Assembly: GCA_009846005.1 (NCBI GenBank)
Contig: VXYL01000070.1
Coordinates: 277,699-341,698, forward strand
Direction of reading: 5' to 3'
From: Gammaproteobacteria bacterium
GTDB lineage: Bacteria; Pseudomonadota; Gammaproteobacteria; Pseudomonadales; Azotimanducaceae
DNA length: 64,000 nt
The notes under the pieces are model-generated. The model worked only from the letters and a program-made list of their open reading frames with translations. It searched no databases and was not told the DNA's origin. A program made the translations under genes and the position numbers. This document shows, piece by piece, positions 6,414 to 46,964 of this stretch. Every line of letters begins with the position of its first letter. The first letter of the stretch is position 1.

Positions 6414-8837
6414 ATGCTCAAGGCCATGGTGCAACGCACTCGACGCTGGCCGTCGTGGCCGGTCGCAATCTGCCTCGCCGGGTTGATTGGCGGCATCGAC
6501 GCGGCTGAACGTTCGATGACGGGCAGCGTTCTGCATCTCGGGGGCGGCACGGCGGCCGTCGACGCGCCACTCGCCATCCCCCGCTTCTCGGAAGCCGAGG
6601 CTGCCATCCGCCTCGACGGCACACTCGACGAACCGATATGGGCGCACGTGCCTGCCTACGACAGGATGACCCTCATCCGGCCCGACAAGGGTGGCACGGG
6701 CCGCTATCGGACGCAGACGTTCATCTTCCATACCGAACGTGGCATGTACTTCGGGGCCTGGAACGAGCAGCCAGCGGACTCGTTAACGCCAAGACTCGCC
6801 GGTCGCGACGGCTGGGGAACGGGCGACGCCTACCAGGTCATGATCGACAGCTCTGGGGACGGCCGCTACGGGTACTGGTTCATGGTAGTGCTCGGCGGCA
6901 CCCTTGCCGATGGTCACCTTATGCCCGAGCGCCGATTCAGCAGCAACTGGGACGGCCCCTGGCGTGGCGAAACTCGCGAAGCCGACGACGGCTGGACGGT
7001 GGAGATGTTCCTGCCATGGTCGATGATCGACATGCCCGCAACGGACGGGCCGCGGCAGATGGGGCTCTTGATCACCCGCGACCTCGCCTCGATCAACGAG
7101 CGTTGGGCATGGCCCGGCCTGTCGTGGATCCAGCCGAAGTTCATCTCGGCGTTCCAGCCGATGGTCTTCGAAGGGGTCGCGCCCCGTCAGCAGATCAGCG
7201 TCTTCCCCTACGCCACGGTCCTCGCCGACATCGCCCGCGACCACCGGGACCAGAAGGCCGGCGTCGACGTGTTCTGGCGACCATCCACGGCGTTCCTTCT
7301 CAATGCGGCGGTGAATCCCGATTTCGGCCAGGTCGAGGCCGACGACATCATCGTCAACCTCTCCGCCTACGAGACCTTCTTCGAGGAGAAGCGACTGTTC
7401 TTCACCGAGAACCAGGAGGTCTTCCGCGGCAGCACGTTCGGGCCGGACCTGCTTCACACCCGGCGCATCGGCTCGTCGGTCGGATCCCGCCGCGGCGGTC
7501 CTGACTTCGAGCCCGGTGTCGCCTTCGACCCCTACGACACCGGCAAACCCGTGGATCTCCTCTTCGCCGCCAAGGGCATCGGCCAACTCGGCAACTGGCG
7601 ATGGGGTGCGCTGGGCGTGGCCGAGGACGATACCCGGCTCGCGCTGCGCAACGCCGCCGGCAGCATCGACGCCGCGGGTCGAAGATTCGGCGTAATGCGT
7701 TGGCAGCATGAGAACACCGCCCGCGGTGCCCGTCGTGCCATCGGCTGGATGGGAACCGTCGTCGACCATCCGGCCCGGCGCGCCGTCACACACGGCATGG
7801 ACGGCCACTATCGAACCGTGGACGCGAAATGGACCTGGGATGGTCAGTTGTACTACAGCGATGTGCCGGACGGCACCGGAGCAGGGGGGCACGGCCAGGT
7901 GCGTTGGGCGCCTCGCCGGGGTGACTTGCACGTCCTGCGCGTGGACCACTACGACAATGAACTCGACCTTAACGACGCCGGCTTCATTTGGCGCAACGAC
8001 TACCGCGGTGTCTCGTACAGCTTCGACCGTCAAGACCATCAATCCGAACGGTTCCGCGAGGTGTATAGCCAGTTCTCGACGTTTGCCGACTTCAACGGCA
8101 GCGGCCGTCGGATCGGCAGCGTCGTCGACATCGCGCGACACTGGTCGTTCCAAAACAACACCCGCGCCACGCTGCGCGGCGTCTTCCGCCCCGGACACTG
8201 GGATGATCGAAACAGCCGCGGCAACGGCGACTACCGTGTCAAACGCCATGCCGGAGTCCTGGCTAGCTGGGGAAGCGACACGTCCAAGCGTCTCTACTCC
8301 TTCGTAGGCGGCCAAGCCCGCACCGAGCCCGAGGGGGGGTGGTTCTTCGAAGCGAATGTCGGTACGACGTGGCGACCCTTCCCCCGGCTCACGGTCTCCC
8401 CAGGGCTCATATACATCCATCGCGATGCCTGGGTGCTCTGGCAGCACGATCGCCGCTTCGAGGCATTCGAAACCGAGCAATGGTCGCCGCGCCTTCGCTT
8501 CGACGCGTTCTTCACCGCACGTCAGCAGTTGCGGATCCAGGTCGAATGGACAGGGCTCAAGGCACATGGGGCAAAGCGCTTGATGATCGCCCCGGGCGGC
8601 AACCTCGTGCCGAGCGGCATCGCAACGGATCGGTTCGCGATCAGCAGGATGACCGTGCAGGTCCGCTACCGCTGGCAGATCGCACCTCTCTCGGATCTCT
8701 TCGTGGTCTACAACCGCAACGCCTCGCTGTTCGAGTCGTCCACCGAAAGGAGCTTTCTCGATCTTCTGGACAGTGTCTTCGACGACCCGCAGCGCGAAGC
8801 CCTGCTCGTCAAGCTCCGCTACCGGTTCGGCCGGTGA
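6414..8837 (+). CDS. DUF5916 / CBM9-like domain outer-membrane protein
   Basis: 807 aa. There is an N-terminal signal-like segment, a CBM9-like IRLDGTLDEPIWAHVPAYDRMT and the DUF5916-type motif NPDFGQVEADDIIVNLSAYETFFEEKRLFFTEN. The C-terminal half is beta-rich. Confidence 0.7.
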   Translation: MLKAMVQRTRRWPSWPVAICLAGLIGGIDAAERSMTGSVLHLGGGTAAVDAPLAIPRFSEAEAAIRLDGTLDEPIWAHVPAYDRMTLIRPDKGGTGRYRTQTFIFHTERGMYFGAWNEQPADSLTPRLAGRDGWGTGDAYQVMIDSSGDGRYGYWFMVVLGGTLADGHLMPERRFSSNWDGPWRGETREADDGWTVEMFLPWSMIDMPATDGPRQMGLLITRDLASINERWAWPGLSWIQPKFISAFQPMVFEGVAPRQQISVFPYATVLADIARDHRDQKAGVDVFWRPSTAFLLNAAVNPDFGQVEADDIIVNLSAYETFFEEKRLFFTENQEVFRGSTFGPDLLHTRRIGSSVGSRRGGPDFEPGVAFDPYDTGKPVDLLFAAKGIGQLGNWRWGALGVAEDDTRLALRNAAGSIDAAGRRFGVMRWQHENTARGARRAIGWMGTVVDHPARRAVTHGMDGHYRTVDAKWTWDGQLYYSDVPDGTGAGGHGQVRWAPRRGDLHVLRVDHYDNELDLNDAGFIWRNDYRGVSYSFDRQDHQSERFREVYSQFSTFADFNGSGRRIGSVVDIARHWSFQNNTRATLRGVFRPGHWDDRNSRGNGDYRVKRHAGVLASWGSDTSKRLYSFVGGQARTEPEGGWFFEANVGTTWRPFPRLTVSPGLIYIHRDAWVLWQHDRRFEAFETEQWSPRLRFDAFFTARQQLRIQVEWTGLKAHGAKRLMIAPGGNLVPSGIATDRFAISRMTVQVRYRWQIAPLSDLFVVYNRNASLFESSTERSFLDLLDSVFDDPQREALLVKLRYRFGR

Positions 8838-8982: not shown

Positions 8983-9222
8983 ATGCCCATAGGGCCGAAC
9001 GGCGAAAAAAGACCGCCAGCCGTGATTGCGAACGCGGTGATCAGCATGAGGATCGCCACCGGCGAGGCCAGTGAGACGATCGTCGAGACCGACGTCTCAC
9101 CACGAGTCAGCACCGCCGTTCCGGCCAGCGGACGACGTCCCAGCCGCATTACGATGCTCGCCGCCGTTGCCCGATGGGGCCCTCCACGACGTGACGCGAA
9201 CAGGGCGATCAGCAGTGCCTAG
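8983..9222 (+). CDS. small conserved hypothetical protein (GPNGEKRP..VI.NAV..MRIATGE family)
   Basis: The N-terminus MPIGPNGEKRPPAVIANAVISMRIATGE and the later AAVARWG resemble a short protein family I recall from plasmid and mobile contexts. This rests on memory only. Confidence 0.45.
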   Translation: MPIGPNGEKRPPAVIANAVISMRIATGEASETIVETDVSPRVSTAVPASGRRPSRITMLAAVARWGPPRRDANRAISSA

Positions 9223-9237
9223 CCCGCACCCCCCGAG

Positions 9238-9978
9238 TTGCAGATGAACCGTCTACCCACCGCCAAGCGCGCGGCGATCCTGCGCATGCTGGTGGAGGGA
9301 TCGTCGATGCGTTCGATTACCCGCGATGACGGCGTGAGCATCAACACCATCGCCAAGCTTCTCAACGATGCCGGCGACGCAGCGAAGGCTTTCCTCAACG
9401 AACACGTACGGCAGATACCCGATCGTCGCCGGATCGAGTGCAGCCAGACCTGGGCGTTCAGCCACTCGACGGCGGGATCACGCGGTGATCGGACCCGAGA
9501 CACCGACGACACGTGGACCTTCGCAGCGATCGACGCGGACAGCAAATTGATCGTGTCCTGCGAGGTGGGCGACAACAGCCAAACGACCACCGCCGCTTTC
9601 CTCGAGGACGTGCGACGAAGACTGAGCGAGACCCCCGTACTGTCGACCAACGGTCTCAAGGGGAACCACGATGTCGCGGACATTCGCATGGCCAAGCGTC
9701 CGAGGAGCGTCGACACGCCGAAATCGGATGGCAGCAGGCCGCAGATGCCCTCGAACACGGAGAAACGCCGGCTCGAGAAGCATGTCGCGATGATCAATCT
9801 CTACGCCTTCCACTACAACTATTGCCGAGTGCACCCGGCACTGGGCATGACGCCCGCGATGGCGGCGGGGCTCGACGACGACATGCGGGACATGACCTGG
9901 CTCGTCGACCTGATCGACAAGCGCGCGGGCAAACCCAACCGACCAAAGACCTACCGCAAGCGCGTCCATTCAAACTGA
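9238..9978 (+). mobile_element. IS1-like (HTH + DDE) transposase gene, probably degenerate
   Basis: The N-terminal HTH is MNRLPTAKRAAILRMLVEGSSMRSITRDDGVSINTIAKLL and the C-terminus is YNYCRVHPALGMTPAMAAGL, both typical of this transposase family. The ORF is only 246 aa. The expected CDEIW reads CSQTW, TTDGHKAY reads STNGLKGNH, and the segment that should carry the catalytic Glu appears deleted. I found no terminal inverted repeats. Confidence 0.6.
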
Positions 9979-10021: not shown

Positions 10022-10059
10022 GACCGATGCCTCTGCTGCTTCCGACAGGAGGTGCCGAA

Positions 10060-10371
10060 GTGAGAGCAACCGAAATACTGGAACTTTTGTTGTCGAGAGC
10101 GGGTGAAGATCCGGAGTTCAGATCCCGCCTGTTGTCCGAACCGGAAGCGACCCTCAAGGATGAGTACGGTTTCGCTGTCCCGGACGGGATGAAGCTCAAG
10201 GTCATCGAAGATTCGAAGACCACGGCCCATCTCGTGCTACCACCGAACCCGCAACTGACGATGGACGAAATGCGTGCCGTCAGCGGCGGGATCGGCGCAG
10301 TCGACGACAACAGCGCCGGAAGCAATTCCAGCGATACCGACTGGCAGAACCACCCGATCTTCCACGACTAA
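10060..10371 (+). CDS. NHLP (nitrile hydratase leader peptide) family RiPP precursor
   Basis: The leader VRATEILELLLSRAGEDPEFRSRLLSEPEATLKDEYGFAVPDGMKLKVIEDSKTTAHLVLPPNPQLTMDEMRAVSGG matches the NHLP leader pattern (AWeDpeFk..Ll.nP, LvLP.nP, ..eL..VaGG). An AGGAGG Shine-Dalgarno at 10047-10052 lies 7 nt before the GTG at 10060, so the track start at 10027 was trimmed. Confidence 0.85.
   Translation: MRATEILELLLSRAGEDPEFRSRLLSEPEATLKDEYGFAVPDGMKLKVIEDSKTTAHLVLPPNPQLTMDEMRAVSGGIGAVDDNSAGSNSSDTDWQNHPIFHD
10291..10368 (+). other. predicted core peptide IGAVDDNSAGSNSSDTDWQNHPIFHD (26 aa) after the double-glycine cleavage site
   Basis: The core follows the SGG motif that C39 peptidase-domain exporters recognise. 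It contains 5 Asp, 3 Asn, 4 Ser, 2 His, 1 Trp and 1 Pro, and has no Cys, Lys or Arg. Confidence 0.65.
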
Positions 10372-10631: not shown

Positions 10632-11279
10632 GTGCCCCGGTTTCCCTGGGTTAGGCCCCAACGTGCGCGTTCAACGCGCAAGCCCAACGCCGACTCGCCG
10701 GGCGCGTCGTCGAGCTACTACGGACTCCTTCCGAACCGGCTGTTCAATGACGAGGCCTCGAGGAATCGCGCCGAACTCGAGCCCATCGACAACCTGACGC
10801 GATCCACGACCCCGCATGCGGCGCATGTGACCATCGCCATTGGTGCGCTCGCAATCGCCGTCGCGGCATGGCTGACGCTGGGCCGTGTCGACCACAGCCT
10901 GTGGTTGACCGGCAAACTCGTCGACGCGGACGCAGCGACCGCAACGCAAGGCCTTCGCCCCGGGGACGTCATTCGGATCGAAACCGAGGTCCGTCCCCCC
11001 GATGTCGACCTGTTGCTTGCTGGCAGGAAAGTCCTCCTGTTCACAAGCACCTCGACCGACACGTTCGTGGCGGGAACGGTCCGCCACATCCACGTCCTAA
11101 CGCATGCGAGCCTCGATGGTCCCAACGCGACGGTTAGGCTCGACATCGAACACGACCCATCGTCGCCGCTCGTGCCGCCGGACTCCCACGACTACCGGCT
11201 GCGCATTCCCATCGGCACGCAGCGCCCGCTTGAGATGCTTCTCGGTTTCGCGAAGACACGGTCGGCCCGAGAGCCATGA
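10632..11279 (+). CDS. HlyD-family adaptor of the NHLP/bacteriocin export system, unusually short
   Basis: It has a single TM helix (VTIAIGALAIAVAAWLTLG), beta-rich lipoyl/barrel-like segments (GDVIRIE, VAGTVRHI) and a terminal GTQRPLEMLL resembling the HlyD C-terminus. Its stop overlaps the next start (ATGA at 11276-11279). The start (GTG at 10632) is uncertain. Confidence 0.55.
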   Translation: MPRFPWVRPQRARSTRKPNADSPGASSSYYGLLPNRLFNDEASRNRAELEPIDNLTRSTTPHAAHVTIAIGALAIAVAAWLTLGRVDHSLWLTGKLVDADAATATQGLRPGDVIRIETEVRPPDVDLLLAGRKVLLFTSTSTDTFVAGTVRHIHVLTHASLDGPNATVRLDIEHDPSSPLVPPDSHDYRLRIPIGTQRPLEMLLGFAKTRSAREP

Positions 11280-13474
11280 ACCCGGTGATCACCAAGCTTC
11301 GACGCCGGCTGCGCCCGATTCCGCGAACACCCCTGTTCCAGCAGATCCAGGCGAGCGAATGCGGCGCGGCCAGTCTCGGGATCCTCCTCGCCCACTTAGG
11401 TCGGTGGATTGGAATGAACGAACTCTGCAGAGCCTGCGGCGTGAGCCGGGATGGGTGTTCCGCGGCCGACATCCAACGCGCCGCCGCAGGCTACGGCGCC
11501 GAAGTCACGGGGTGGCAACGTTCGGGGGAGTACCTGAAGAAACTGGAAGCGCCAGCGATTCTGTTCTGGGAGTTCAATCACTTCCTGGTACTCGAGGGAT
11601 TCAAGAACAGCCGCTACTACATCAACGACCCGGCGAATGGCCGCTACTCGCTGGACGAGGCGACGTTCGCAGAGCGCTATATGGGCATCGTGCTGCTGGT
11701 GCGACCGGGTTCGGATTTCACGCCCTCGGAACGCCCGGCGAACCTCCGGTCCCGCCTGTTGCCCTGGCTGGGCGAACATCGCATCCAGATCGGCGTCGCA
11801 TTCGTCTTGGGTCTCTTGATGGCCGCTCCGATGCTGGCTCTGCCCGAGTTGCTTCGCTACTTCACCGACGCGGCCATCGGCAGCTCTCCCCCGTCGGTAA
11901 CGCTCGTGGTCGGCGGGACCGTCGGTATCGCCACAGTTATGTTCGGACTTCTCTGGCTACAACAGCGCGTCCTGCTCGCTGTTAGCGTGCGCATCGCGCT
12001 CGTGCAATCCGAACGGTTTCTGTCCGCCTTGCTGCGTCTGCCGATGGAATACTTCGCACAGCGATTCTCGGGGGAACTCGCCTCGCGTGCCCGCCTGCTG
12101 GACCGAATCGCCAACACGGCGACCACACGGTTGGCTCGACTTGCCATCGAATTGACCATGAGCCTCATATTCCTCGTCTGGATTGCCCTGCAGGACTCGG
12201 TACTCGCTGTAACGGCCGCTGTCGTGGCGATCCTGAACGTATTCGTCGTGCGTCTCGTCTACGATCGTTGCAGGCACGAAAACTACCGACTGCGTCGCAG
12301 TCAGAGCATGCTCTCCGGCATCGCGGCGACGGCGCTGAAAAACCTCGATACGCTTCGGGCATCCGGAACCGAGGGCGACTTCTTCACGCGCCTGTCCGGC
12401 TACCAGGCACTTGAACTGCGCTACCGCCTGCGATCGGCCGAACTCGGCGCTTTCACGAACGCGCTGCCGCCGTTCTTCCTCATGGTGGGAGGAGCGGTGG
12501 TGCTTGGGGTCGGGGGCATGCGCGTCATCTCCGGGGACATGTCGATTGGAGACGTCGTGGCAACCTACTTTGTCATCGGCAGCTTTTTGCTGCCGATCGG
12601 CAAGTATGTCGAGTCGACCGGACTCATCCAGATGTTGGAAGCCGATCTGCAGCGGGTTCAGGACATCCAGGACGCCGACCCCGGACCCGGTGCAGACACT
12701 CTCGAGACAGACGGGGCGAACCGTCTGTTCAGCATCGGTCGACGGGTCCGGCTCGCGGGTCGGCTGGAACTGCGCGATGTCACCTTCGGCTACCGGCTTC
12801 ACCACGACCCGATCATCGAGGGGTTCAACCTGACCCTCGAGCCAGGCCAGCGTGTGGCACTGGTCGGCCCGAGCGGGTCCGGCAAATCCACGATCGCGTC
12901 GCTAATCGCCGGCATCTATCGACCGTGGACCGGCCAGGTTCTGTTTGATGGCCATGAGCGCGACGAGATACCGCGCGAAGTCGCCATCGACTCGGTTGCC
13001 TATGTGAGCCAACGCGTCAATCTGTTCTCCGGCACGGTCCGCGAGAACCTCACCATGTGGAATCCCACGGTGCCGGACGCGCTGGTCGTCGATGCGGCCC
13101 ACGACGCGCAAATCCACGACGAGATCGCCCAACGGCCATTGGGCTACGACACGACGATCGAGGAAGGTGGCCAGAACTTCAGCGGCGGCCAACGTCAGCG
13201 TTTGGAGATCGCGCGCGCACTCGTGCCGCGACCGTCCTTGATCATCCTCGACGAGGCGACGAGCGATCTCGATGCCGCAGTGGAATCGCGCATCGACGAC
13301 TCGTTGCGCAGGCGCGGCTGCGCCTGCCTGATCGTGGCCCACCGGCTGAGCACGATCCGGGACAGCGACGAGATCCTCGTCTTGGATCAGGGCAGGACGG
13401 TTCAGCGCGGCCAACACGAAGAACTGATGCTCGACAAGGCCGGCATCTACCACGACCTCGTGACGTCCCAGTAG
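11276..13474 (+). CDS. NHLP-family bacteriocin export ABC transporter, C39 peptidase/permease/ATPase
   Basis: The C39 domain has a catalytic Cys (QASECGAASLGILLA), His (FWEFNHFLVLEG) and Asp (INDPANG). It is followed by a 6-TM ABC permease, Walker A GPSGSGKST, the signature FSGGQRQR and Walker B IILDEATS. Confidence 0.9.
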   Translation: MNPVITKLRRRLRPIPRTPLFQQIQASECGAASLGILLAHLGRWIGMNELCRACGVSRDGCSAADIQRAAAGYGAEVTGWQRSGEYLKKLEAPAILFWEFNHFLVLEGFKNSRYYINDPANGRYSLDEATFAERYMGIVLLVRPGSDFTPSERPANLRSRLLPWLGEHRIQIGVAFVLGLLMAAPMLALPELLRYFTDAAIGSSPPSVTLVVGGTVGIATVMFGLLWLQQRVLLAVSVRIALVQSERFLSALLRLPMEYFAQRFSGELASRARLLDRIANTATTRLARLAIELTMSLIFLVWIALQDSVLAVTAAVVAILNVFVVRLVYDRCRHENYRLRRSQSMLSGIAATALKNLDTLRASGTEGDFFTRLSGYQALELRYRLRSAELGAFTNALPPFFLMVGGAVVLGVGGMRVISGDMSIGDVVATYFVIGSFLLPIGKYVESTGLIQMLEADLQRVQDIQDADPGPGADTLETDGANRLFSIGRRVRLAGRLELRDVTFGYRLHHDPIIEGFNLTLEPGQRVALVGPSGSGKSTIASLIAGIYRPWTGQVLFDGHERDEIPREVAIDSVAYVSQRVNLFSGTVRENLTMWNPTVPDALVVDAAHDAQIHDEIAQRPLGYDTTIEEGGQNFSGGQRQRLEIARALVPRPSLIILDEATSDLDAAVESRIDDSLRRRGCACLIVAHRLSTIRDSDEILVLDQGRTVQRGQHEELMLDKAGIYHDLVTSQ

Positions 13475-13499: not shown

Positions 13500-16364
13500 A
13501 TGGGCAACATCGTAAGCCGAGACACACACCGCGCCGCGTTTCCGCTGGCCGGCGACAGTTCCGCTTGGCGCGTCGACTCGGGCGCCGTCGACGTGTTCTT
13601 CGTCCACGTCAACGACGGCATCGTCAACGCCCCCTACAAGCACGTCCTGCGCGCCGCAGAGGGGCAAGTGATCTTCGGCATCGACCCGTTGGACTTGGGC
13701 GACGACGGACAACTGGAGCTGTGGGCCAAGGGCCTGCCAGGCTTCTCCCTCCACGCCACGACGGTCGGCGAGCTAATCGACCGCGACGACGCCGTGGCCG
13801 CCCAGGTCGACCAGTGGATAACCAGCTTCACGGACTCGGTTGCCCGCGACATCATGCCCGTGCCTCGCGCGGATGCGTTCGTCTCACTCGGTCATGTTCC
13901 GGACCTTCAGGCCGTCAAGGTCGTATCCGCCCGGGGCGGCGTGGTGTGGTTGTCGGGGCTCAGGGCGGCTTCCTACCTCGGTTTGGTCGACGCCACCGAC
14001 CACGATGCCGATTGGCTCCCGTTGACCCTGCAAAGCTGGGTGACGGTGTCGGGATCCCAGGACACCGTCGTCGCGGCGTCGAGCGCGCAGCTACACGAGA
14101 GCGGAACGCTCGAAGAGGCTCTCGGCAAGTTCCACCGGCGCTTGCTCGACGCCGAGCGGGTCAACAGGCTGCTCGAGGTCGTCGACGAAGCCAATCTTCA
14201 GATGGACCGCTCCACGCGGCGGCGCGAAGACGAAGAGCAAGCCCGGGACGAACTCAAGCGCCTGTTCGAGCAAACCGACTCCGACGCTGCAATACCCGCG
14301 CTCCATGAAGCACTCAACGCAGTAGGGGCGTACGAGGGTTTCGAGTTTCAGTTCCCTGATCCCGACCCCGACGCCAGCCACGGCGATCCGGTTGTCGAAA
14401 TCGCGTTCAGTTCAAGGGTGCGGGCGCGCGCCGTCCGGCTCGACTCCGTGACCCGCTGGTGGTTCGGCGACAACAGCGCGCTACTCGGCTTCCACAGCGA
14501 GAGTGGATCCCCTATCGCACTCCTGCCCGGGCGTTTTGGGCGCTACCGCCTACGAGATCCCGCGACGCGCAAGACGACGACAGTGACCCGGGCCGTGGCG
14601 GGCAAGCTGCACAAGTATGCTTGGATGTTCATCCGCCCCCTCCCCGAACGACCGGTCAAGGCCAGAGATGCGCTGAAGCTGTTCGCGAACAAGACCGGCA
14701 GCGATTCGATCCGGTACGCGGTCAGCGGACTCATCGCCGGCCTGATCTCCTTTGCGCCGGCCGCCATGGTCGCCGTCATCGTGGATTGGCTGATACCGGC
14801 GCGAAGCGACGGCTTCCTCTACCTGGCCATGGCGACCCTGGTACTGCTCGCAGTCGCGGGATGCCTTGTCCAGCTGCGCCAGGGCACGACCTTGGTGCAC
14901 GTCGAAGGGCGCGGTGCCGCACGGCTAACGGCCGCCATCTGGGATCGCTTGCTGCGGCTCAAGCGCGACGATGTTCGCGGATTCAAGACCGGCGAGATCT
15001 CGCAACGGGCGTTCGTGGTCCAGGCACTGCGCGAGAACACCTCCGGCATCGTCTCCGGCACGCTCAGTTCGATTCTCTTCCTGCTGCCGATACTCGGCCT
15101 GCTGTTCCTCTACGATGCGACCCTGGCAACGACAAGCCTTGCCTTGGGAGTTCTCGGCCTCATCGTCGTCGCGAGCTTCGGGTTCCGCCAGGTCACGTGG
15201 CAGCGTCGATACCACGACGCGCAGCAGACCCTGGCGGGCGACATGTTCCAGTTCGTGAACGGCATCGAAAAGTTGCGGGCCACCGGCGCGGAGAGTTCCG
15301 TTTTCGCGTTCTGGGTGCGCGGCTATCTCGACAAGAAGCAAGCCGAGATCAAGGTAGAACGCTTGAACGCCCTGGCAACCGCCGTGACGGGATCGCTGCC
15401 GATGTTCGCCGCTGCCTGCCTATTCGCCGTCGTCTTGATGCGCCCGGACGGGCCCATAGAGCTTGGCGCATTCCTCGCCGTGTTCGCCGCTTCGATGACC
15501 TTCTTCAGCGCGATAACGCGAATGGGGGGCTCGGTCGGTGCCCTCGCTTCGCTGTTTCCCGCCTATCAGCAACTCAAGCCCCTGTTCGACCCGTCCCTCG
15601 AGGCCCGGACATCGGCAAGCGTCGCTCCCATCCGCCGAATCCAGGGGGAGGTGCGCCTTGACCATGTCACCTTCAGCTACGAGGAAGCCGGGCCCCAGGT
15701 ACTTCGCGATGTCTCGCTGCACGTCCGACCCGGCGAGTTCGTCGCCATCGTCGGCGAATCCGGGTCGGGAAAGAGCAGCCTGCTCCGTCTCATCCTGGGA
15801 TTGGAACGGCCCTCAACCGGCGCGGTGTACTTCGACGAACGAAACCTCCGCTACCTCGATGACCTCGCGCTACGCCGCCAGATCGGGGTCGTCATGCAGA
15901 ACGGCTCGCTGCAACCCGGGACGATCCTCCAGAACATCGTCGGAATCAACAGCGAGGCCACCCTGGAAGATGCCTGGTCCGCAGCGCGCAAGGCATCCCT
16001 GGCCGACGACATCCGGGCGATGGAGATGGGCATGCACACACCCGTCGGCGAACATTCAGGGCTGTTCTCGGGTGGCCAAGTACAGCGCATCCTCATCGCG
16101 GCGGCACTCGTGAGAGACCCGAGCATCATTCTGCTGGACGAGGCCACCAACTGGCTTGACAACAAGAGCCAGGCGGAGGTCATGCGCAGCATTGGTGAAA
16201 TCGCCGCAACCCGTATCGTCGTCGCACATCGGCTGTCCACAATCAAGAACGCCGACCGGATCTACGTCCTGTCACACGGCCGGGTCGTCCAATCGGGTAC
16301 GTTCACGGAACTCGCAGCGGCACCGGGAACGTTCCAGACCCTAATCGCCCGCCAAGTGACGTAG
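13500..16364 (+). CDS. NHLP-family bacteriocin export ABC transporter permease/ATPase with cNMP-binding-like N-terminal domain
   Basis: The N-terminus (WRVDSGAVDVFFVHVNDG..HVLRAAEGQVIFGI) is like the cyclic-nucleotide-binding-like domain of the second NHLP exporter subunit. The nucleotide-binding domain has GESGSGKSS, FSGGQVQR and ILLDEATN. Length is 954 aa. Confidence 0.85.
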   Translation: MGNIVSRDTHRAAFPLAGDSSAWRVDSGAVDVFFVHVNDGIVNAPYKHVLRAAEGQVIFGIDPLDLGDDGQLELWAKGLPGFSLHATTVGELIDRDDAVAAQVDQWITSFTDSVARDIMPVPRADAFVSLGHVPDLQAVKVVSARGGVVWLSGLRAASYLGLVDATDHDADWLPLTLQSWVTVSGSQDTVVAASSAQLHESGTLEEALGKFHRRLLDAERVNRLLEVVDEANLQMDRSTRRREDEEQARDELKRLFEQTDSDAAIPALHEALNAVGAYEGFEFQFPDPDPDASHGDPVVEIAFSSRVRARAVRLDSVTRWWFGDNSALLGFHSESGSPIALLPGRFGRYRLRDPATRKTTTVTRAVAGKLHKYAWMFIRPLPERPVKARDALKLFANKTGSDSIRYAVSGLIAGLISFAPAAMVAVIVDWLIPARSDGFLYLAMATLVLLAVAGCLVQLRQGTTLVHVEGRGAARLTAAIWDRLLRLKRDDVRGFKTGEISQRAFVVQALRENTSGIVSGTLSSILFLLPILGLLFLYDATLATTSLALGVLGLIVVASFGFRQVTWQRRYHDAQQTLAGDMFQFVNGIEKLRATGAESSVFAFWVRGYLDKKQAEIKVERLNALATAVTGSLPMFAAACLFAVVLMRPDGPIELGAFLAVFAASMTFFSAITRMGGSVGALASLFPAYQQLKPLFDPSLEARTSASVAPIRRIQGEVRLDHVTFSYEEAGPQVLRDVSLHVRPGEFVAIVGESGSGKSSLLRLILGLERPSTGAVYFDERNLRYLDDLALRRQIGVVMQNGSLQPGTILQNIVGINSEATLEDAWSAARKASLADDIRAMEMGMHTPVGEHSGLFSGGQVQRILIAAALVRDPSIILLDEATNWLDNKSQAEVMRSIGEIAATRIVVAHRLSTIKNADRIYVLSHGRVVQSGTFTELAAAPGTFQTLIARQVT

Positions 16365-16481: not shown

Positions 16482-17978
16482 TCAACGGGTTGCCGGGTGG
16501 AATGCCGACACGGCATCGTCCTTGATCAACTGCATGAGGAAAGCGTCGATGAACTCGTCCGGGTACCCATCGCGGCAGATCGCCTTGAGTTCCTCCACCG
16601 ACATCGAATCCGATCGGGCTAGTGCACTAATCAAGTCGAGACACCGAATGTCGAATCTCCGCTCCATGCCATTCGCCCTGAGCACGAAGGTGCCCTTGGC
16701 GAGGCACGTCTCGATCGCGGCGTGCCGCCGACCCTTGAGCGAGAGTCGAAATCCGTTCCATAGCGGCGACTTCCAAGGCTCAATATAGGTCGACAGCGAT
16801 GTCCGGCTCGCCTCCGTCCACGACGCCCTGATATCCGATTGGAATCGATCACCCAGATCGTCGACCAACTTTCCGCGAATCAACGCCACCAAGCGCTGGA
16901 AATAGTCCCTGCGGCTCGCCTCGTCCGCCGCCAAGGGCGTGTTCTTGCGAAACACCTCGTGGTCGAGAAGTGTGTTCTCGAGCCAGCGCATAACCCAGGT
17001 ACCTGTTACCGGCCGGGTGCTGAGCGTCAGATGAATGCTGCCCTTTCCGTCATCGACTTCGTCGACCCGGGCATCGTGCCACCATCCCCGTGGAACATAG
17101 AGCACGTCCCCCGCAGTCAACTTGCCCGACCAAACCGGTTCGTCGGGTCTGTCCAGATTGGGCCGGTTGTCCAGCTTCGTCGGAAGGTTCCGGGTCTCAC
17201 CGAAGAGGTGCCACCGCTTCTCCCCAACCGCTTGGATGACGTACACGTCGTGATCGTCCCAGTGCGTCGCGAAGCCTCGCGTCGATCGCCACGAGGCGTA
17301 CAGATTGACGTTCACGTAGGTCGCGAGACTTCGTTCGATTTCGTCCGACAGCCTGCGAATCGGCTCGTGGTAGTCATGAACCGCGTTGGCGATGAAAGTC
17401 GCGCCGCTGCGCAGTAGATTGGCCAGTTTCCGTGCGTCTACTCTCGATACAAACGGACCGGGCTGCCGGGTACCCAACCCGAGGTTGTCGATCTGAAAGA
17501 GGTCATCGGCGACCTCCACGCCGTCCATGACGACATGCAACTGCGGCGGCCGGAGATTGCGGTTGCAGATGGCATCGTTCAAATCATCCCAGGTGATCAA
17601 CCCGGCAAACCGATCATCCGGGCCTCGAAGAACCAACGGCCTCGGCTCGCGATACTGCTCGCGGTAGAAATCGGTGACGTCCAGCGGCGCAACAAGCCTT
17701 GCGAGTCCCTCCAAGCCGTCGCGATCGCAACCCCGGGCGTCGAGCTCGCCGACGCCTGGGCGCTTGGCTTCAGCCCGCTCAACGTCCCCGTCCCGCGCCG
17801 ATTCCAGTCGAATGCGCATGTTCGGGACATCCGCTCGCTTGGAAAGAAGACCGAGCACCGCCTCGTCGTGCCTTTCTTCCCGGCGGTGCACGTGATGGTC
17901 GACGGGTCCGGCGGAAGCGAGTTTCTTGCCCAGGAACATCTCGTGCGCCTTTGGTGTTCGGTCGGCCATGGCACTCAT
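16482..17978 (-). CDS. JmjC / cupin-4 Fe(II)- and 2-oxoglutarate-dependent oxygenase (RoxA/YcfD-like) with C-terminal winged-helix-like domain
   Basis: GFATHWDDHDVYVIQAVGEKRWHLF carries the HxD motif and LYVPRGWWHDARV the distal His, as in ribosomal oxygenases. The C-terminal ~120 aa is helical/wHTH-like. The N-terminal ~90 aa may be an over-extension; alternative in-frame Met codons exist. Confidence 0.8.
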   Translation of the reverse strand: MSAMADRTPKAHEMFLGKKLASAGPVDHHVHRREERHDEAVLGLLSKRADVPNMRIRLESARDGDVERAEAKRPGVGELDARGCDRDGLEGLARLVAPLDVTDFYREQYREPRPLVLRGPDDRFAGLITWDDLNDAICNRNLRPPQLHVVMDGVEVADDLFQIDNLGLGTRQPGPFVSRVDARKLANLLRSGATFIANAVHDYHEPIRRLSDEIERSLATYVNVNLYASWRSTRGFATHWDDHDVYVIQAVGEKRWHLFGETRNLPTKLDNRPNLDRPDEPVWSGKLTAGDVLYVPRGWWHDARVDEVDDGKGSIHLTLSTRPVTGTWVMRWLENTLLDHEVFRKNTPLAADEASRRDYFQRLVALIRGKLVDDLGDRFQSDIRASWTEASRTSLSTYIEPWKSPLWNGFRLSLKGRRHAAIETCLAKGTFVLRANGMERRFDIRCLDLISALARSDSMSVEELKAICRDGYPDEFIDAFLMQLIKDDAVSAFHPATR

Positions 17979-18095: not shown

Positions 18096-19337
18096 CTACG
18101 CAACGACCGTCGGTCCGCCACCCTGCAAGACACGGTCGCGGTAGTCGTTGGGGTGTCTTCGGGCGTTGGCGTTGTGCTCCCGCCAGAGCGCCACGAACCA
18201 GTCGGGCACCTTTCGGTCACCGCATTGCGCCGCCAGGCGGTTCATGTAGTCCATCTGACCGTCCTCAAGTCGATGGAAATGGCGTTCCGCCACCCCCGCC
18301 GCCCGCAATGTGTCGATCTCGTCGCAATGCATCCGGCACCGGTCGGCAGGCGATGGCAGAGGAAAGCGGCAGGCGAGCGCACGCGCAAACCATCGCGCCT
18401 GGCGTTGGAACAGTGGGAACGGGACGACGCGGAACGGCAGGCCGATGAACGCAAGGGAGGGATCTTCGACGGCGACGACTTGCTGGTAGAGGCCCTTCAC
18501 CCAGTTGTCGCCGATCGAGACAACGTCGGAACCGAGAAACGGGAACCGGTACCAGTAGCCGGTACAGAACAGCATCGCGTCGACGTCGCGAATCCGCTCC
18601 GTGTTGGTCAGTACGGCGTCCGCACCCTCGAAATACGCTATGGGCGGACACCGCTTGATCCGCCCCGCCTGCTCCCCGAGCGGAGGTTGCTGGTCGAACA
18701 GCCTGCCTGAGAAGAACACCTCGGCGACACCCGCCAACTCGCGCGACAGGTCGCTCCCAGACACCGACGAACCGAGCACGACGACGCGCTGTCCCAGGAA
18801 GTCATCGGGTCGCCGGTAGTTGTGACTGTGCAGCGCCGTACCCGGAAAGTCCGCGAGTCCTCGGATCTCGGGTACCCTCGGTTCCGAGAAGTGTCCGTTG
18901 CACACGGCGACGGCATCGAACCGCTCGCCGTCGACGAGCCAGCCATCGTCCCGGGTCACCTGCCGTACCCGGTAACCCAGGCGCACCGCCTCGCCAATGC
19001 CGGTGTCGATGGCGAAGCGGCGCAGGTACTCGAGCACGCGTGCATGGTGGGGAAAGCGCGGCCAGTCGTCGCGTCCGCCACCGGCACCGTCGAAGGTGTA
19101 CCCCTCGAAGGCCATCAAATCCCTCGGCAGGTTGACGCGCATCGACGCGTATAGCGACGAGTGAATGCGTCGGCTCGGACGTTGTCCGAGCGGGTCGTCC
19201 TCGACGGCGTTCGTGTAGTTCCACAGTCCGCCTACCTGCGCGGACTGCTCGAATACCGTCGCGCGATGCCCTTCAACGACCAGTTCGTGAGCCGTGACAA
19301 GGCCCGCGGCACCGGCACCGATAACGGCGACATGCAC
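18096..19337 (-). CDS. flavin-containing monooxygenase (FMO-type, NADPH-dependent)
   Basis: The FAD fingerprint is VAVIGAGAAGL, GGLWNY follows, the FMO motif is FPGTALHSHNYRRPDDF, and the second Rossmann motif is VVVLGSSVSGSDL. Confidence 0.8.
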   Translation of the reverse strand: MHVAVIGAGAAGLVTAHELVVEGHRATVFEQSAQVGGLWNYTNAVEDDPLGQRPSRRIHSSLYASMRVNLPRDLMAFEGYTFDGAGGGRDDWPRFPHHARVLEYLRRFAIDTGIGEAVRLGYRVRQVTRDDGWLVDGERFDAVAVCNGHFSEPRVPEIRGLADFPGTALHSHNYRRPDDFLGQRVVVLGSSVSGSDLSRELAGVAEVFFSGRLFDQQPPLGEQAGRIKRCPPIAYFEGADAVLTNTERIRDVDAMLFCTGYWYRFPFLGSDVVSIGDNWVKGLYQQVVAVEDPSLAFIGLPFRVVPFPLFQRQARWFARALACRFPLPSPADRCRMHCDEIDTLRAAGVAERHFHRLEDGQMDYMNRLAAQCGDRKVPDWFVALWREHNANARRHPNDYRDRVLQGGGPTVVA

Positions 19338-19362: not shown

Positions 19363-20070
19363 CTACATCGTTCGCGTACGAAGGCCCTGGCTGACCCGGA
19401 TCTCCATGGTGTGTGCCGTCGCTGGCTGGGTCGCGAGGAATACCGCCGCGTCCGCGATGTCTTCAGCCTGGATGATCGAGTCCGGATCCTCGTTCGGGAA
19501 TCCCTCGCTACGCATCCTTGAGACCGTTGCGTCCGGCAGAATGACGTGGGAACGGATGCCCTGGTAGAGGTATTCGGCGACCAGCGTCTTGGTGAACCCC
19601 ATCACGCCGTGCTTCGAGGCGGCATAGGCGGAGCGATTGCGCGGGCCGACGACGCCGGCACCCGAAGAAATGTTGATGATGCAGCCGCTACGCTGGTCGA
19701 GCATTGACGGCAGCGCGTACTTGGTACACAGGAAGAGCCCGCGCAGGTTGACGTTCATGACGTGGTCCCAGTCCTCCACGGGCAACTCGTGAACCGGCAG
19801 TCGAGCAACCGCTCCGGCGTTGTTCACCAGGATGTCGATTCGACCGTGGGCATCGAGCGCCGCGTCGATCATGCTGCGGATGTCCGCTTCGTCCGCCACG
19901 TCGCAGGGTATGGCCAGCCCGCCGATCGCCTCGGCCACGGCATCGATCTCGTCGACGCTTCGCGCCGAGCAGACGACCGATGCGCCTTCCTTCGCGAACG
20001 CCTCCGCGATGGCCTTGCCGATGCCGCGTCCCGCGCCGGTGACGATTGCCACCTTGTCCCTAAGCTGCAT
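19363..20070 (-). CDS. SDR-family oxidoreductase
   Basis: Motifs present are TGAGRGIGKA, NNAG and YAASKHGV (YxxxK). Confidence 0.85.
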   Translation of the reverse strand: MQLRDKVAIVTGAGRGIGKAIAEAFAKEGASVVCSARSVDEIDAVAEAIGGLAIPCDVADEADIRSMIDAALDAHGRIDILVNNAGAVARLPVHELPVEDWDHVMNVNLRGLFLCTKYALPSMLDQRSGCIINISSGAGVVGPRNRSAYAASKHGVMGFTKTLVAEYLYQGIRSHVILPDATVSRMRSEGFPNEDPDSIIQAEDIADAAVFLATQPATAHTMEIRVSQGLRTRTM

Positions 20071-30583: not shown

Positions 30584-32461
30584 GTGACGCCCGGAGACCT
30601 GGCCTATACGACGCCTGACCGCCTGCTGCGGGACTTCGCAAGCCGTGGTCTCGTCGCGTTGGCACCCGAGACTCTCGGCATCCCGGGCGAGATCCACGAG
30701 GCGATCTACGAGAAGGAACGCGAGGCGTTCAACGCCGGTCGCTACATCACCGCCTCGCTGATTCCCGAGATTCTCGATGTCATCGGCTCGCCGGGTGTCG
30801 TCGCCGCCTGCGACGCCCTGGTCGGGAGGAACTGGGCCATCGTGCCGTTCACGCACAATACGCCGTTCCCGAGCGGTTCCCGCGACCAGCACTGGCACAA
30901 GGACGACAACGGACCCTACAACCTGCGAAAGCACCGTCACCATCAGGCCATCCAGATCGAGATGCTCTACTACCCGCAGGCGGTGAATGACGACAACGGC
31001 CCCACCGCGGTCATTCCCTATTCCCAGTACTGGACGTTCAACCACGAGGAGAACCACGACAACTTCGCCGGCGCTGACCACTTGGATTTCGGCTACCAGG
31101 TTGGGGGGATGGAACGCCTTCCAGTAAGCGGGCCGAACTCCACCTACGACGTCGAAGATGTGGTCAACCGCCGAACGGCGCACGACATCCGCATGCGGGA
31201 CGCCGTGGCGAATACCGGCTGGCCGCTGGTTGTGCCGTTCGAAGCGTCGCCGCTCAAGGCCGGCAGCGTGGTGCTCTACTCGCACAACCTTTTCCACCGG
31301 GGCAACCATCGCCGGGACGATTGGCGGACGTGGAAGGGGACACCCCGGTTCATGTGGCGGTTCTGGCTGTACCGGACCACCGACCCCGATGGCGAAGCGC
31401 CGGAGGAGGTCGATTGGCGCGCATTGGGTATCGACGACATGACCCGCGTAGACCTGACCCAGGCACCGGACGATGCCACCGTCCTGTGGCGGCACCATCA
31501 TCATTGGCTGCACACCGGCCGGCCGCCAAGACGCAGCGCCGGTCGACACCGGAATCCGAACGGACTTGCCGCAGAGCTGTATGCGACGGGCGAAGCAGCG
31601 GAAACGAATCGGATCGGCGCCGCCTACAAGCTCGCATCCAGCGGAGACGACTCCGCGCTGCGTCTGCTGGGTGAGGCGCTAGTCGACGAACGCGAAAGTG
31701 TGCGCCGCGCCGCCACCTACGGCCTGGTAGCACTCGGCTCGGAGGCGGCGGACGCGTTCCTCGACGCTACCGAATCGGCGGTCAAGTGGGTCCGCAAGGC
31801 CGGTGTCTACGGTCTGGGAGATGTCGCTCCGCTCACCGCCCAAGTTCTCGACGCGGTGGCCGATCGGCTTGCCAACGATCCATCCGTCTACGTCCGATCC
31901 GTGGCGGCGAACGCACTGGGATGTTTGGGTCGCCGGGCCGTCGCCTCGGGCATTGGCCAAGACCTTGTTCCGCAATGCGTCAACGCACTCGTGGAATCAC
32001 TAGGGCGTGAGGGGAACCGGCTAGGCATGAACATCGCCCAGGACCGCAGCATCAAGTTCGTGCGACCCACCGACGAATGCGATGTCTGCGAGGGCATCGG
32101 CATCAACTACGGCACCGAACGGTTCAAGCGCGTGCGTTCGGCGGTGCGCGAGAACGCGCTGACTTCCATGGTCGTCCTGTGCTCGCACGGCGCTGCGCTC
32201 CTCGGGGAGGAACTCAAGCCAACCGTCGCGGCGCTGGCCGATGTCGTGCGAACCGACGAGAACGTGTTCAGCGTCGGCCTGGCCCTCGACTCGCTGAATC
32301 GCTTGGCAAACATCGGAAAGGGTCCGGTCACTGGCATCCGCGCAACGCTGCTCGGACTGCTCGAGGCCATGCCCATCCATAGCTGGGAACCGCTCGTGCG
32401 CAGCGGCCTCGACCCGTCGGTCGTTCGGGAGTTCAGTCAGGCCGAAATCGAGCGTCCCTAG
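30584..32461 (+). CDS. PhyH-like Fe(II)/2OG oxygenase fused to C-terminal HEAT-like repeats
   Basis: The N-terminal half has HWHKDD (HxD) and LYSHNLFHRGNH (distal His). The C-terminal ~270 aa has repeated HEAT/PBS-lyase-type units: VRRAATYGLVALG, VRKAGVYGLGDV, VYVRSVAANALGCLG and VRENALTSMVVL. Confidence 0.7.
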   Translation: MTPGDLAYTTPDRLLRDFASRGLVALAPETLGIPGEIHEAIYEKEREAFNAGRYITASLIPEILDVIGSPGVVAACDALVGRNWAIVPFTHNTPFPSGSRDQHWHKDDNGPYNLRKHRHHQAIQIEMLYYPQAVNDDNGPTAVIPYSQYWTFNHEENHDNFAGADHLDFGYQVGGMERLPVSGPNSTYDVEDVVNRRTAHDIRMRDAVANTGWPLVVPFEASPLKAGSVVLYSHNLFHRGNHRRDDWRTWKGTPRFMWRFWLYRTTDPDGEAPEEVDWRALGIDDMTRVDLTQAPDDATVLWRHHHHWLHTGRPPRRSAGRHRNPNGLAAELYATGEAAETNRIGAAYKLASSGDDSALRLLGEALVDERESVRRAATYGLVALGSEAADAFLDATESAVKWVRKAGVYGLGDVAPLTAQVLDAVADRLANDPSVYVRSVAANALGCLGRRAVASGIGQDLVPQCVNALVESLGREGNRLGMNIAQDRSIKFVRPTDECDVCEGIGINYGTERFKRVRSAVRENALTSMVVLCSHGAALLGEELKPTVAALADVVRTDENVFSVGLALDSLNRLANIGKGPVTGIRATLLGLLEAMPIHSWEPLVRSGLDPSVVREFSQAEIERP

Positions 32462-46664: not shown

Positions 46665-46964
46665 TTACAGGAGCCTGGGTTCCACCATCACGGGGCAGCG
46701 CTTGCTGAGCTCCCGGACAATGTCCTTGGACGTTTCGCGCAGCCGGCGGCGCACCGCTTGCTGAGCCTGGGTACCCTGGGCGTGCTTCGCCGCCTCCGCC
46801 ATGGCGTCCTCCACCGTCTCGTCAAAAGCCGCGAGGCGGCTCATCAACTCGTCGCAGGACATGGTTCGATAGTCCTCCGGACGTTGACCTTCGGAGCGGT
46901 TCATGCAGCCGCCCAACGCGATCACGCAAGCGGCAGCTAGCAACGCACCGCGCACAGGCGTCAT
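46665..46964 (-). CDS. small lipoprotein
   Basis: MTPVRGALLAAACVIALGGC contains a lipobox. The start overlaps the upstream stop (ATGA at 46961-46964). Length is 99 aa. Confidence 0.6.
   Translation of the reverse strand: MTPVRGALLAAACVIALGGCMNRSEGQRPEDYRTMSCDELMSRLAAFDETVEDAMAEAAKHAQGTQAQQAVRRRLRETSKDIVRELSKRCPVMVEPRLL

Follow-up and report, generated by a model that had tools for sequence, protein, structure and literature searches.

The NHLP precursor gene and its cassette

The stretch of DNA analysed here (the window) comprises 64,000 nucleotides of contig VXYL01000070.1 (positions 277,699 to 341,698, forward strand) of a Gammaproteobacteria bacterium (GCA_009846005.1). We have studied in it a small gene of the plus strand, located at 10060..10371, that codes for a peptide precursor of 103 amino acids plus stop, together with the export and oxygenase genes that follow it. 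The gene begins with a GTG at 10060, and a Shine-Dalgarno-like AGGAGG is found 7 nucleotides 5' of it on the same strand (10047..10052). Its translation matches TIGR03793 with 63.2 bits over a cut-off of 50.9 (E 1.5e-17, model positions 3-77 of 77) and has 22 homologues at 67-98% identity; the N-terminal 77 residues also match Pfam NHase_alpha weakly. By the TIGR03793 model test the precursor is a member of the NHLP leader peptide family. The leader, residues 1-77 (10060..10290), ends with V-S-G-G (residues 74-77; the SGG at 10282-10290), and S75, G76 and G77 are invariant. These data uphold the original prediction, made from this DNA alone, of a NHLP precursor with a double-glycine site, the model match being above the cut-off and the SGG invariant in the 22 homologues. 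The core that follows the Gly-Gly site, residues 78-103 (10291-10368), reads IGAVDDNSAGSNSSDTDWQNHPIFHD and can be divided into a variable, hydrophilic spacer, IGAVDDNSAGSNSS (residues 78-91, 10291..10332), where homologues differ by substitutions and indels, and a conserved C-terminal module, DTDWQNHPIFHD (residues 92-103, 10333..10368), all on the plus strand.

The composition of the core had been described correctly before: 5 Asp, 3 Asn, 4 Ser, 2 His, 1 Trp and 1 Pro, with no Cys, Lys or Arg. Its net charge is -5 and it contains Gly, Pro and Ser. Against the amino-acid usage of the window's own proteins, the probability of finding no Cys, Lys or Arg in 26 residues was 0.035, that of at least 5 Asp was 0.033 and that of at least 8 Asp plus Asn was 0.0025. 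Taken as a lone sequence, the core is only mildly unusual relative to those proteins. A single sequence would be insufficient, and the claim about the core stands beyond chance because of its conservation across homologues. Class II double-glycine bacteriocins have leaders of ~15-30 amino acids and cationic, amphipathic cores, whereas here the leader is of the NHLP type with 77 amino acids and the core is at -5. A pore-forming bacteriocin of this class had been considered unlikely, and a core that is anionic, non-amphipathic and contains Gly and Pro agrees with that. The Rfam scan of the window gave no match, and scans for promoters and terminators near the precursor and oxygenase genes gave nothing beyond the expectation from shuffling.

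Downstream of the precursor, also on the plus strand (10632..11279), there is a gene for a short HlyD-like membrane-fusion protein with one predicted membrane helix. The longest open reading frame (ORF) has 215 amino acids, the true start may be later, and the stop overlaps the start of the next gene (ATGA). This 215-residue ORF has no match in Pfam or NCBIfam, TIGR03794 included. Its phmmer relatives hold the same position in other loci, among them 302-residue proteins with the domain PF13437 HlyD_3. The HlyD-like partner has ~165-220 residues in the window and in related cassettes and seems to be devoid of the long helical hairpin. In HlyD this hairpin normally reaches the outer-membrane channel, and therefore with such a shortened partner export may stop in the periplasm or take another route.

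Two ATP-binding cassette (ABC) transporter genes come next on the same strand. ABC1 (11276..13474) codes for a C39 double-glycine peptidase fused to a permease and an ATPase, with TIGR03796 as best match (809.5 bits, equivalog cut-off 853.3). Its N-terminal domain aligned to the double-glycine protease LahT150 (PDB 6MPZ) with 114 bits, including the motifs of the Cys (ECGAASL), the His (NHFLVL) and the Asp (NDPA), and judged by this alignment the C39 peptidase triad is intact. ABC2 (13500..16364) is a permease/ATPase with no peptidase domain and matches TIGR03797 over residues 267-953 (672.9 bits, cut-off 709.4). The preceding extension of ~266 residues (window 13500-14300) gave no Pfam match; its length is conserved in related cassettes, whose ABC2 proteins have 953-981 residues.

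The last gene of the group, at 16482..17978 on the minus strand, codes for a JmjC Fe(II)/2-oxoglutarate (2OG) oxygenase of the ribosomal-oxygenase type, with 498 amino acids (PF08007 JmjC_2, 86.7 bits over a cut-off of 22). The order is therefore precursor, short HlyD-like, ABC1, ABC2 and JmjC, with JmjC convergent with the ABC genes in the window. No second precursor or second JmjC gene was found in the window, and its larger ORFs, scanned against Pfam and NCBIfam, gave no YcaO, LanM or radical-SAM domains.

Conservation and selection along the precursor

The 22 homologues retrieved by the protein search are named from gammaproteobacterial metagenome-assembled genomes (MAGs), and related loci carry isolate names of sponge metagenomes (IRC1_bin, COS4_bin, RHO1_bin). 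Alignment of the homologues shows high conservation of the leader and of the S-G-G site. In the core, the first 14 residues vary in sequence and length, yet stay rich in Gly, Ser, Thr, Asp and Asn, and the last 12 are nearly fixed. D92, D94, H98, P99, I100, F101 and D103 are invariant in the alignment, while W95 changes to Y and H102 to R in some homologues, so that the module of this lineage can be written as D-x-D-[WY]-x-x-H-P-I-F-[HR]-D. In a codon comparison of nine genes, the ratio of nonsynonymous to synonymous changes (dN/dS) was 0.14 over the leader, 0.79 over the spacer and 0.31 over the last 12 residues, and synonymous changes were present within the conserved module. This pattern of dN/dS along the gene indicates that it is under purifying selection. 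As far as comparison of sequences can tell, the C-terminal module is probably the bioactive, modified part of the molecule.

Cys is absent from the cores of all 22 close homologues, and the 9 distinct cores of the window's own lineage are all net negative, with a mean of -5. The original prediction of a core free of Cys and acidic therefore holds for the lineage. Its further point, no basic residue, does not hold as a family trait, since a single Arg occurs in the core of 15 of the 22 homologues, either in the spacer or as FRD in place of FHD (counted from the alignment). The conservation of the Asp, Asn, Ser and His positions, which had been proposed as a check, is likewise partial: D92, D94, H98 and D103 are invariant in the lineage, but most of the Asp, Asn and Ser fall in the variable spacer. 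A core hypervariable or frameshifted in relatives had been named as the sign of a decaying gene; the frame is intact in all homologues and only the spacer half is hypervariable.

A second lineage with the HPIFHD ending

With a threshold of E <= 1e-3, a profile search of 1.84 billion representative proteins gave 4672 that are NHLP-like. P0101, which is one of these, and its relatives P0239-P0241 are only ~43% identical overall to the window precursor and come from genomes of ~50% G+C. Their cores end in ...NWQEHPIFHD, ...SWQDHPIFHD or ...NWQDHPIFHD, i.e., WQ[DE]HPIFHD is kept. The C-terminal nonapeptide is conserved better than the leader and is therefore marked as the functional end of the molecule. 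In P0241 His98 is replaced by Asn. A scan of metagenomes with a DNA pattern for WQ[NDEK]HPIFHD found only one more member of the window's own lineage.

In two loci of this second group (L092 and L093) the gene order of the window recurs, with short-HlyD, ABC1, ABC2 and, directly after ABC2, JmjC, as a run of genes divergent from the precursor. This JmjC is 40% identical to that of the window, and the gene is cut by the contig end. Two others (L089 and L091) have an enoyl-CoA hydratase gene after ABC2; the assembly of the first has many frameshifts and that of the second is clean. In all four loci a gene for a TauD-family Fe/2OG dioxygenase is syntenic ~3.5 kb downstream of the precursor.

Recurrence of the cassette in distant genomes

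Homologues of the window JmjC at 36-44% identity are present in unrelated genomes. A 6.7-Mb Vicinamibacterales chromosome contains, on one strand, a NHLP precursor, a 204-residue protein, a C39-ABC, ABC2 and JmjC, the start of JmjC overlapping the stop of ABC2. The core of this precursor, SWANDRGEDDRDHRNNAPQWWDANDYDE, is Cys-free and acidic, and the gene order is identical in other Vicinamibacterales loci. We extended the comparison by scanning one genome per GTDB species for JmjC, which gave at least 513 relatives, of which 78 loci were kept, and by searching every fetched locus with a hidden Markov model of the leader, made from the 22 homologues. This model detected 130 NHLP precursors in 47 loci. 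Among the closer JmjC relatives (300-400 bits), 32 of 36 loci, spanning several phyla, had one or more NHLP precursors less than 10 kb away; the median distance was 396 nucleotides. Among the more distant relatives the figure was 2 of 39. Two of the four exceptions are L009 and its duplicate L019, where the double-glycine precursors are Nif11-like and terminate with ...GGGGW or ...DGGW.

Across lineages, the JmjC gene is found again together with the ABC pair and the short HlyD-like gene, and JmjC is the only enzyme gene common to the cassettes of unrelated genomes. Synteny within the window's own lineage cannot delimit the cluster, because there the entire region is syntenic. We have taken precursor, short HlyD-like, ABC1, ABC2 and JmjC as the functional unit because only these recur together in distant genomes.

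Some of these loci have features of their own. A protein of ~375 residues, F1_378, has no counterpart encoded in the window and was discarded as a member of its cassette; its family occurs together with JmjC and NHLP in 26 of 40 loci, interleaved with precursors (among others at L010:12478-13608, at L036:11960-13096 and in three copies in L035). The family gave no match in Pfam, NCBIfam or PDB sequences. Its invariant pattern of Glu/Asp, Arg/Lys and Tyr recalls prenyltransferases of the ABBA type acting on Trp, so that it may be regarded as a candidate only. Three Binatia and Gammaproteobacteria MAGs (L035, L038 and L043) have 12-18 NHLP precursors per locus around one or two JmjC genes. Their cores are short, differ from each other and are rich in Trp and Asp (e.g., GDWNITSDW, FERHEGFYNINW, RGSGNDEAITFWDDF), an arrangement that resembles the combinatorial one of the prochlorosins. 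L009, a Thalassobaculaceae MAG, has its Nif11-like precursors, with long Gly/Ala-rich cores, at 6805-7164 and 14647-15021 beside the JmjC homologue, and this locus also holds TldD/PmbA and an outer-membrane efflux protein.

A core signature shared with the wider family

We compared the cores found near JmjC relatives in other lineages, 97 distinct sequences that include paralogues (up to 18 precursors in L035), so the counts describe a trend and not independent events. Cys was missing from 87 of the 97. Trp was present in 95 and made up 9% of the residues, against 1.7% in the window's proteins, and Asp made up 13.8%. Net negative charge was found in 67, and an Asp or Asn adjoining an aromatic residue in 78. 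An aromatic residue within the last 4 positions was found in 9 of 9 cores of the window's own lineage and in 82 of the 97 others, when the shuffled means were 2.6 and 53.3, and none of 2000 shuffles reached the observed count. Adjacencies of an aromatic with Asp or Asn numbered 161, compared with 121 +/- 9 after shuffling. The window peptide matches this signature, with F101 at -3 and D-W at 94-95.

The strong acidity of the window core has its counterpart mainly in the Vicinamibacterales sub-group, where the gene order is the same and the cores are even more Asp-rich (e.g., GEDDNDRWNN...DANDYDE). A MAFFT alignment of Vicinamibacterales cores, ...RWNNAPQWWDANDYDE, places W, N, P, an aromatic and D at the positions of W95, N97, P99, F101 and D103, and Ala at that of His98. 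The stretch is short and the alignment of these cores to the window module is suggestive.

The core had been called atypical for NHLP products, and so it is against those that have been characterised. In the wider set this does not stand: of the single-domain NHLP representatives in the library of 1.84 billion proteins, the 26 nearest whose core is complete include 17 with Cys-free and aromatic/acidic cores, and Cys is likewise absent from 87 of the 97 JmjC-linked cores. Four loci (L025, L026, L033, L041) have some JmjC-linked NHLP cores with both Cys and Tyr (GCDGSTDYAWDC; ITCRRKSIWTEERVCTRDVADYNNSWGGSNW), which could relate to the reported 2OG-dependent Cys-Tyr cross-linking. Besides, many of the top matches of the NHLP profile (P0089, P0093, P0097 and others) are proteins of 170-400 residues with two to four tandem NHLP-like domains ahead of a single core; P0089 has four such repeats and a Gly/Tyr-rich tail.

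The oxygenase

The window oxygenase is a JmjC_2/Cupin_8 protein by Pfam. A profile of 24 JmjC homologues matched NO66, MINA53, Bacillus subtilis YxbC and YcfD in the PDB. An AlphaFold2 (AF2) model of the protein, with a mean predicted local distance difference test (pLDDT) of 73.8, was matched by Foldseek to NO66 with E = 1.7e-21 over ~460 columns and template-modelling (TM) scores of ~0.45-0.49. According to the model, the protein would have the full architecture of the ribosomal oxygenases, i.e., JmjC, a helical middle domain and a winged helix. H239, D241 and H301 (numbered on the full ORF) are invariant in the 24 homologues, align to the H-x-D...H metal triad of NO66 and are predicted to be the metal triad here as well. 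The presence of a carboxylate ligand makes us favour a centre of the hydroxylase type over one of the halogenase type, a reasoning that rests on established knowledge of 2OG halogenases.

The C-terminal domain, residues 398-498 (16485..16787, minus strand), was identified from a domain model and Foldseek. Modelled in isolation, these 101 residues reached a pLDDT of 91.7, with strands at 14-17, 24-28, 33-38 and 41-46 followed by helices at 47-58, 64-70 and 77-89. Foldseek matched it to the winged-helix domains of MINA53, NO66 and YcfD, and also to the RREs, the precursor-recognition domains of pathways for peptides that are made on the ribosome and modified after translation (RiPPs), of TruD, LynD, PqqD, ThcOx, TbtB, PbtF, TbiB1, McbB and MibB. 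The matches to RREs had TM scores of 0.5-0.65 and marginal E-values (1e-3 to 0.1). The modelled strands and three helices are those of a winged-helix fold of the RRE type. In agreement with this, Bregman et al. (2025) remarked that RRE-like folds can be present in PF08007 proteins and that bacterial homologues occur in RiPP-like contexts (PMC12710340). Among JmjC enzymes, hydroxylases of RiPP precursors are already known: BipG, an ornithine hydroxylase of the biphenomycin pathway (PMC12707348), and CzlI, which converts Phe to Tyr in curacozole (PMC11575548). The condition "if hydroxylated", which the original prediction had attached to its idea of metal binding, thus gains a concrete basis in the gene for a JmjC Fe/2OG oxygenase in a conserved cassette.

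A proposed pathway and its alternatives

We think it probable, though by no means secure, that the product of 10060-10371 is a leader-guided, oxygenase-modified and exported peptide, i.e., a RiPP. This proposal draws on sequence, synteny and predicted structure. The NHLP leader of 77 residues would serve as a handle, and the core would consist of a disposable hydrophilic spacer and the conserved module D-x-D-W/Y-x-x-H-P-I-F-H/R-D at the C-terminus. Before export, the JmjC Fe(II)/2OG oxygenase would hold the precursor, probably through its RRE-like winged-helix domain, and oxidise one residue of the module. By likeness to NO66, MINA53 and YcfD, the reaction would most likely be a C-hydroxylation of a side chain, with the aromatics W95 and F101, Pro99 and the flanking Asp, Asn and His as candidate sites. 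The C39 domain of ABC1 would then cut after Gly-Gly, and ABC1, ABC2 and the short HlyD-like protein would carry the anionic peptide of ~26 residues out of the cytoplasm. We infer in this way the cleavage and export, the action of the oxygenase on the window peptide, and the kind and site of the modification; hydroxylation is the most likely one and a cross-link is possible. His98, which the analogy with NO66 and MINA53 would suggest as the hydroxylation site, is weakened as a candidate by the change to Asn in P0241 and by the Ala in the Vicinamibacterales alignment.

Several points weigh against this proposal. In L089 and L091 the HPIFHD motif and the three export genes are kept, yet there is no JmjC gene within 10 kb, which means that the oxygenase is dispensable, or is encoded elsewhere in the genome, or is unneeded for the function of the motif. 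It is mainly these two loci that keep our confidence from being higher. The JmjC gene of the window is convergent with the ABC genes and is not co-transcribed with these. For NHLP leaders, which are large folded domains, binding by a RRE-like fold lies outside established knowledge. No residue is singled out as the target, His98 not being conserved across lineages. As the cores within a locus are paralogues, the counts behind the family statistics are not independent of each other. The scores of ABC1 and ABC2 lie under the NCBIfam equivalog cut-offs and the HlyD-like protein is truncated.

The alternative that survives best, unlikely in our opinion but to be taken seriously, is that of an unmodified double-glycine peptide, a signal or competition factor in which WQxHPIFHD acts as it is (e.g., by binding to a receptor), with the JmjC enzyme having another substrate or being optional. 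The two loci just mentioned, with the motif and the export genes and no JmjC nearby, would be explained directly, and so would the opposite strand of the JmjC gene in the window; besides, the closest solved structures act on ribosomal proteins. But an oxygenase with another substrate would hardly be expected to have NHLP precursors in 32 of the 36 loci of its closer relatives, often a few hundred bases off and sometimes with overlaps of stop and start, nor to be the one enzyme gene that cassettes of unrelated genomes have in common, and its RRE-like domain suits the handling of a peptide precursor.

If the oxygenase does act on the peptide, its reaction could instead of a simple hydroxylation be an oxidative cross-link, joining the near-C-terminal aromatic to a side chain beside it in a macrocycle. 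A Cys-Tyr cross-link made in a RiPP by a 2OG-dependent enzyme is on record (Xia et al. 2025, in the account given by PMC12636437), the family signature is a near-C-terminal aromatic with adjoining Asp or Asn (161 against 121 +/- 9 shuffled), and a few related loci have cores with Cys and Tyr, such as GCDGSTDYAWDC. We regard this as rather improbable for the window, since Cys is missing from its core and all of the closest solved relatives are hydroxylases.

Lower in our ranking, and improbable, is the original prediction of a ribosomal metal-binding peptide, in which beta-hydroxy-Asp or His and carboxylates would bind Fe3+, Ca2+ or Cu2+. It accounts for a core at -5 and rich in Asp, Asn and His, for an acidity that is conserved, for the still more Asp-rich cores that accompany the same cassette in Vicinamibacterales and for a protein hydroxylase in the cassette. 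However, most of the Asp, Asn and Ser are in the nearly neutral spacer (dN/dS 0.79), and what is conserved, W-Q-x-H-P-I-F-H-D, is a module of aromatics and Pro and not an obvious chelating array, in which His98 varies across lineages (Asn in one relative, Ala in the Vicinamibacterales alignment). Across lineages the cassette is not accompanied by a TonB-dependent receptor or an uptake gene, nor was one found among the flanking ORFs scanned, and no Fur-box-like site was found in the window at <=3 mismatches, although this is a weak test. The ideas of metal binding and of signalling are speculation; metal binding is possible and not favoured.

Finally, a chance ORF or a gene decaying beside a transposase-like one, as the IS1-like ORF directly upstream and the hypervariable first half of the core might suggest, is hardly credible with the frame intact in all homologues, dN/dS values of 0.14 in the leader and 0.31 in the C-terminal part, and an IS-like ORF that all genomes of the lineage likewise keep in this position.

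Relation to known systems

Known NHLP products are thiazole/oxazole-modified microcins, lanthipeptides and proteusins of the polytheonamide type. From all of them, and from the srp peptides, the window differs by its Cys-free acidic core and by a JmjC enzyme as the sole enzyme of the cassette. With the NHLP/NHLM systems (Haft et al. 2010; TIGR03793, TIGR03796, TIGR03797) it shares the leader family and the Gly-Gly site and, going by best matches that stay below the cut-offs, the paired ABC transporters, one of them with C39, next to a shortened partner resembling HlyD. It departs from them in that YcaO, LanM and radical-SAM are missing among the larger ORFs scanned, in the Cys-free and acidic core, in a HlyD-like protein of about half the usual length and in two ABC proteins just under the equivalog cut-offs. 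Overall, the pathway resembles a leader-guided RiPP system with export by a peptidase-containing ABC transporter (PCAT).

The srp proteusins of sponge microbiomes derive from NHLP precursors with a LCCCW core that receive azolines by YcaO and bromination of the terminal Trp (bioRxiv 10.1101/2023.06.09.544420). As with them, NHLP precursors are common here in sponge symbionts of several phyla and a C-terminal aromatic is a key position. Unlike them, the window has a JmjC oxygenase and not YcaO plus a halogenase, no Cys, and another core motif.

The predicted oxygenase shares with NO66, MINA53 and YcfD (PF08007) the JmjC barrel, the helical middle domain, the C-terminal winged helix and the H-x-D...H triad. 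Identity to them is only ~19%, the partner of the window gene is a peptide precursor with its exporter and not a ribosomal protein, and there is an extra N-terminal region of ~90 residues, modelled at low confidence. BipG and CzlI are similar in being Fe/2OG JmjC enzymes that act on ribosomal precursor peptides, a likeness drawn from their description and not from sequence, and the window oxygenase resembles B. subtilis YxbC, as CzlI does. However, both of these are accessory enzymes beside the class-defining ones, whereas JmjC is the only enzyme gene of the window cassette. As far as the Cys-Tyr macrocyclisation of Xia et al. (JACS 2025, doi 10.1021/jacs.5c07332) is described by others, it would be a parallel for a 2OG oxygenase as the main RiPP-modifying enzyme, and it is cited by Bregman et al. 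in the context of bacterial PF08007 homologues (PMC12710340); by the same accounts it differs in its core, that of the window having neither Cys nor Tyr. Full-text literature searches, from which Xia et al. (2025) fell outside, gave no description of a NHLP-JmjC cassette beyond a passing mention in PMC12710340.

We put forward tentatively, as an idea that is more doubtful than the pathway itself, that NHLP precursors and JmjC enzymes of the RRE-bearing ribosomal-oxygenase type form a distinct RiPP class, widespread among sponge symbionts and soil Acidobacteria with up to 18 precursors per locus and introducing a new modification at a near-C-terminal aromatic/Asp motif. The window would be its minimal form and would make an anionic hydroxylated or cross-linked product, possibly with a role in symbiosis. 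If the oxygenase does modify peptides, this locus would be a minimal and tractable entry, with one precursor, one enzyme and one exporter, to a large family of ribosomal peptides of Gammaproteobacteria, Alphaproteobacteria, Acidobacteriota, Binatia and Spirochaetia, many of them sponge symbionts, that is undescribed in the literature searched. The chemistry of the ribosomal-oxygenase JmjC proteins would then extend from ribosomal proteins to secreted natural products, and the winged-helix domain would gain a function as a leader-binding element. For genome mining, NHLP cores that lack Cys and abound in Trp and Asp are to be seen as common rather than odd, and PF08007 beside TIGR03793 provides a handle to search for them.

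Other genes of the region

Beyond JmjC, the Pfam and NCBIfam scans identified a flavin monooxygenase (FMO), a short-chain dehydrogenase/reductase (SDR) and a family-B DNA polymerase; upstream of the precursor there are a 79-residue ORF, the IS1-like ORF and a DUF5916 protein. Across the window's own lineage, synteny extends over all of this region. In most genomes of the lineage the FMO-like gene (18096-19337, minus strand) adjoins the JmjC gene, and the SDR gene (19363-20070, minus strand) adjoins the FMO/JmjC region. Neither was retained as a member of the cluster, both being absent from L005, the most divergent genome of the lineage, and from all other lineages, and they could be lineage-specific extras or unrelated neighbours. 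The locus comparison showed that FMO, SDR, DUF5916 and the IS-like gene are restricted to the window's own lineage.

In the region directly upstream of the precursor, the 79-residue ORF (8983-9222, plus strand) and the IS-like ORF of 246 residues (9238-9978, plus strand), with a weak match to an IS1-family transposase (35.9 bits, cut-off 100), occupy the same exact position in every genome of the lineage, e.g., at 76-81% identity in L090. A recent insertion disrupting the cluster was therefore rejected as an explanation of the latter. The pair looks like an old, maintained one, possibly domesticated or regulatory.

Further downstream, the window codes for two dioxygenases of the PhyH type, of which one is fused to HEAT repeats, for a subtilase that has a proprotein-convertase P-domain and for a VIT-VWA protein (30584-32461, 38346-39539, 43770-45842 and 46961-49789), and ankyrin-repeat genes flank the syntenic region in two genomes of the comparison (L004 and L007). 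Such a eukaryote-like gene content fits an origin in a sponge symbiont.

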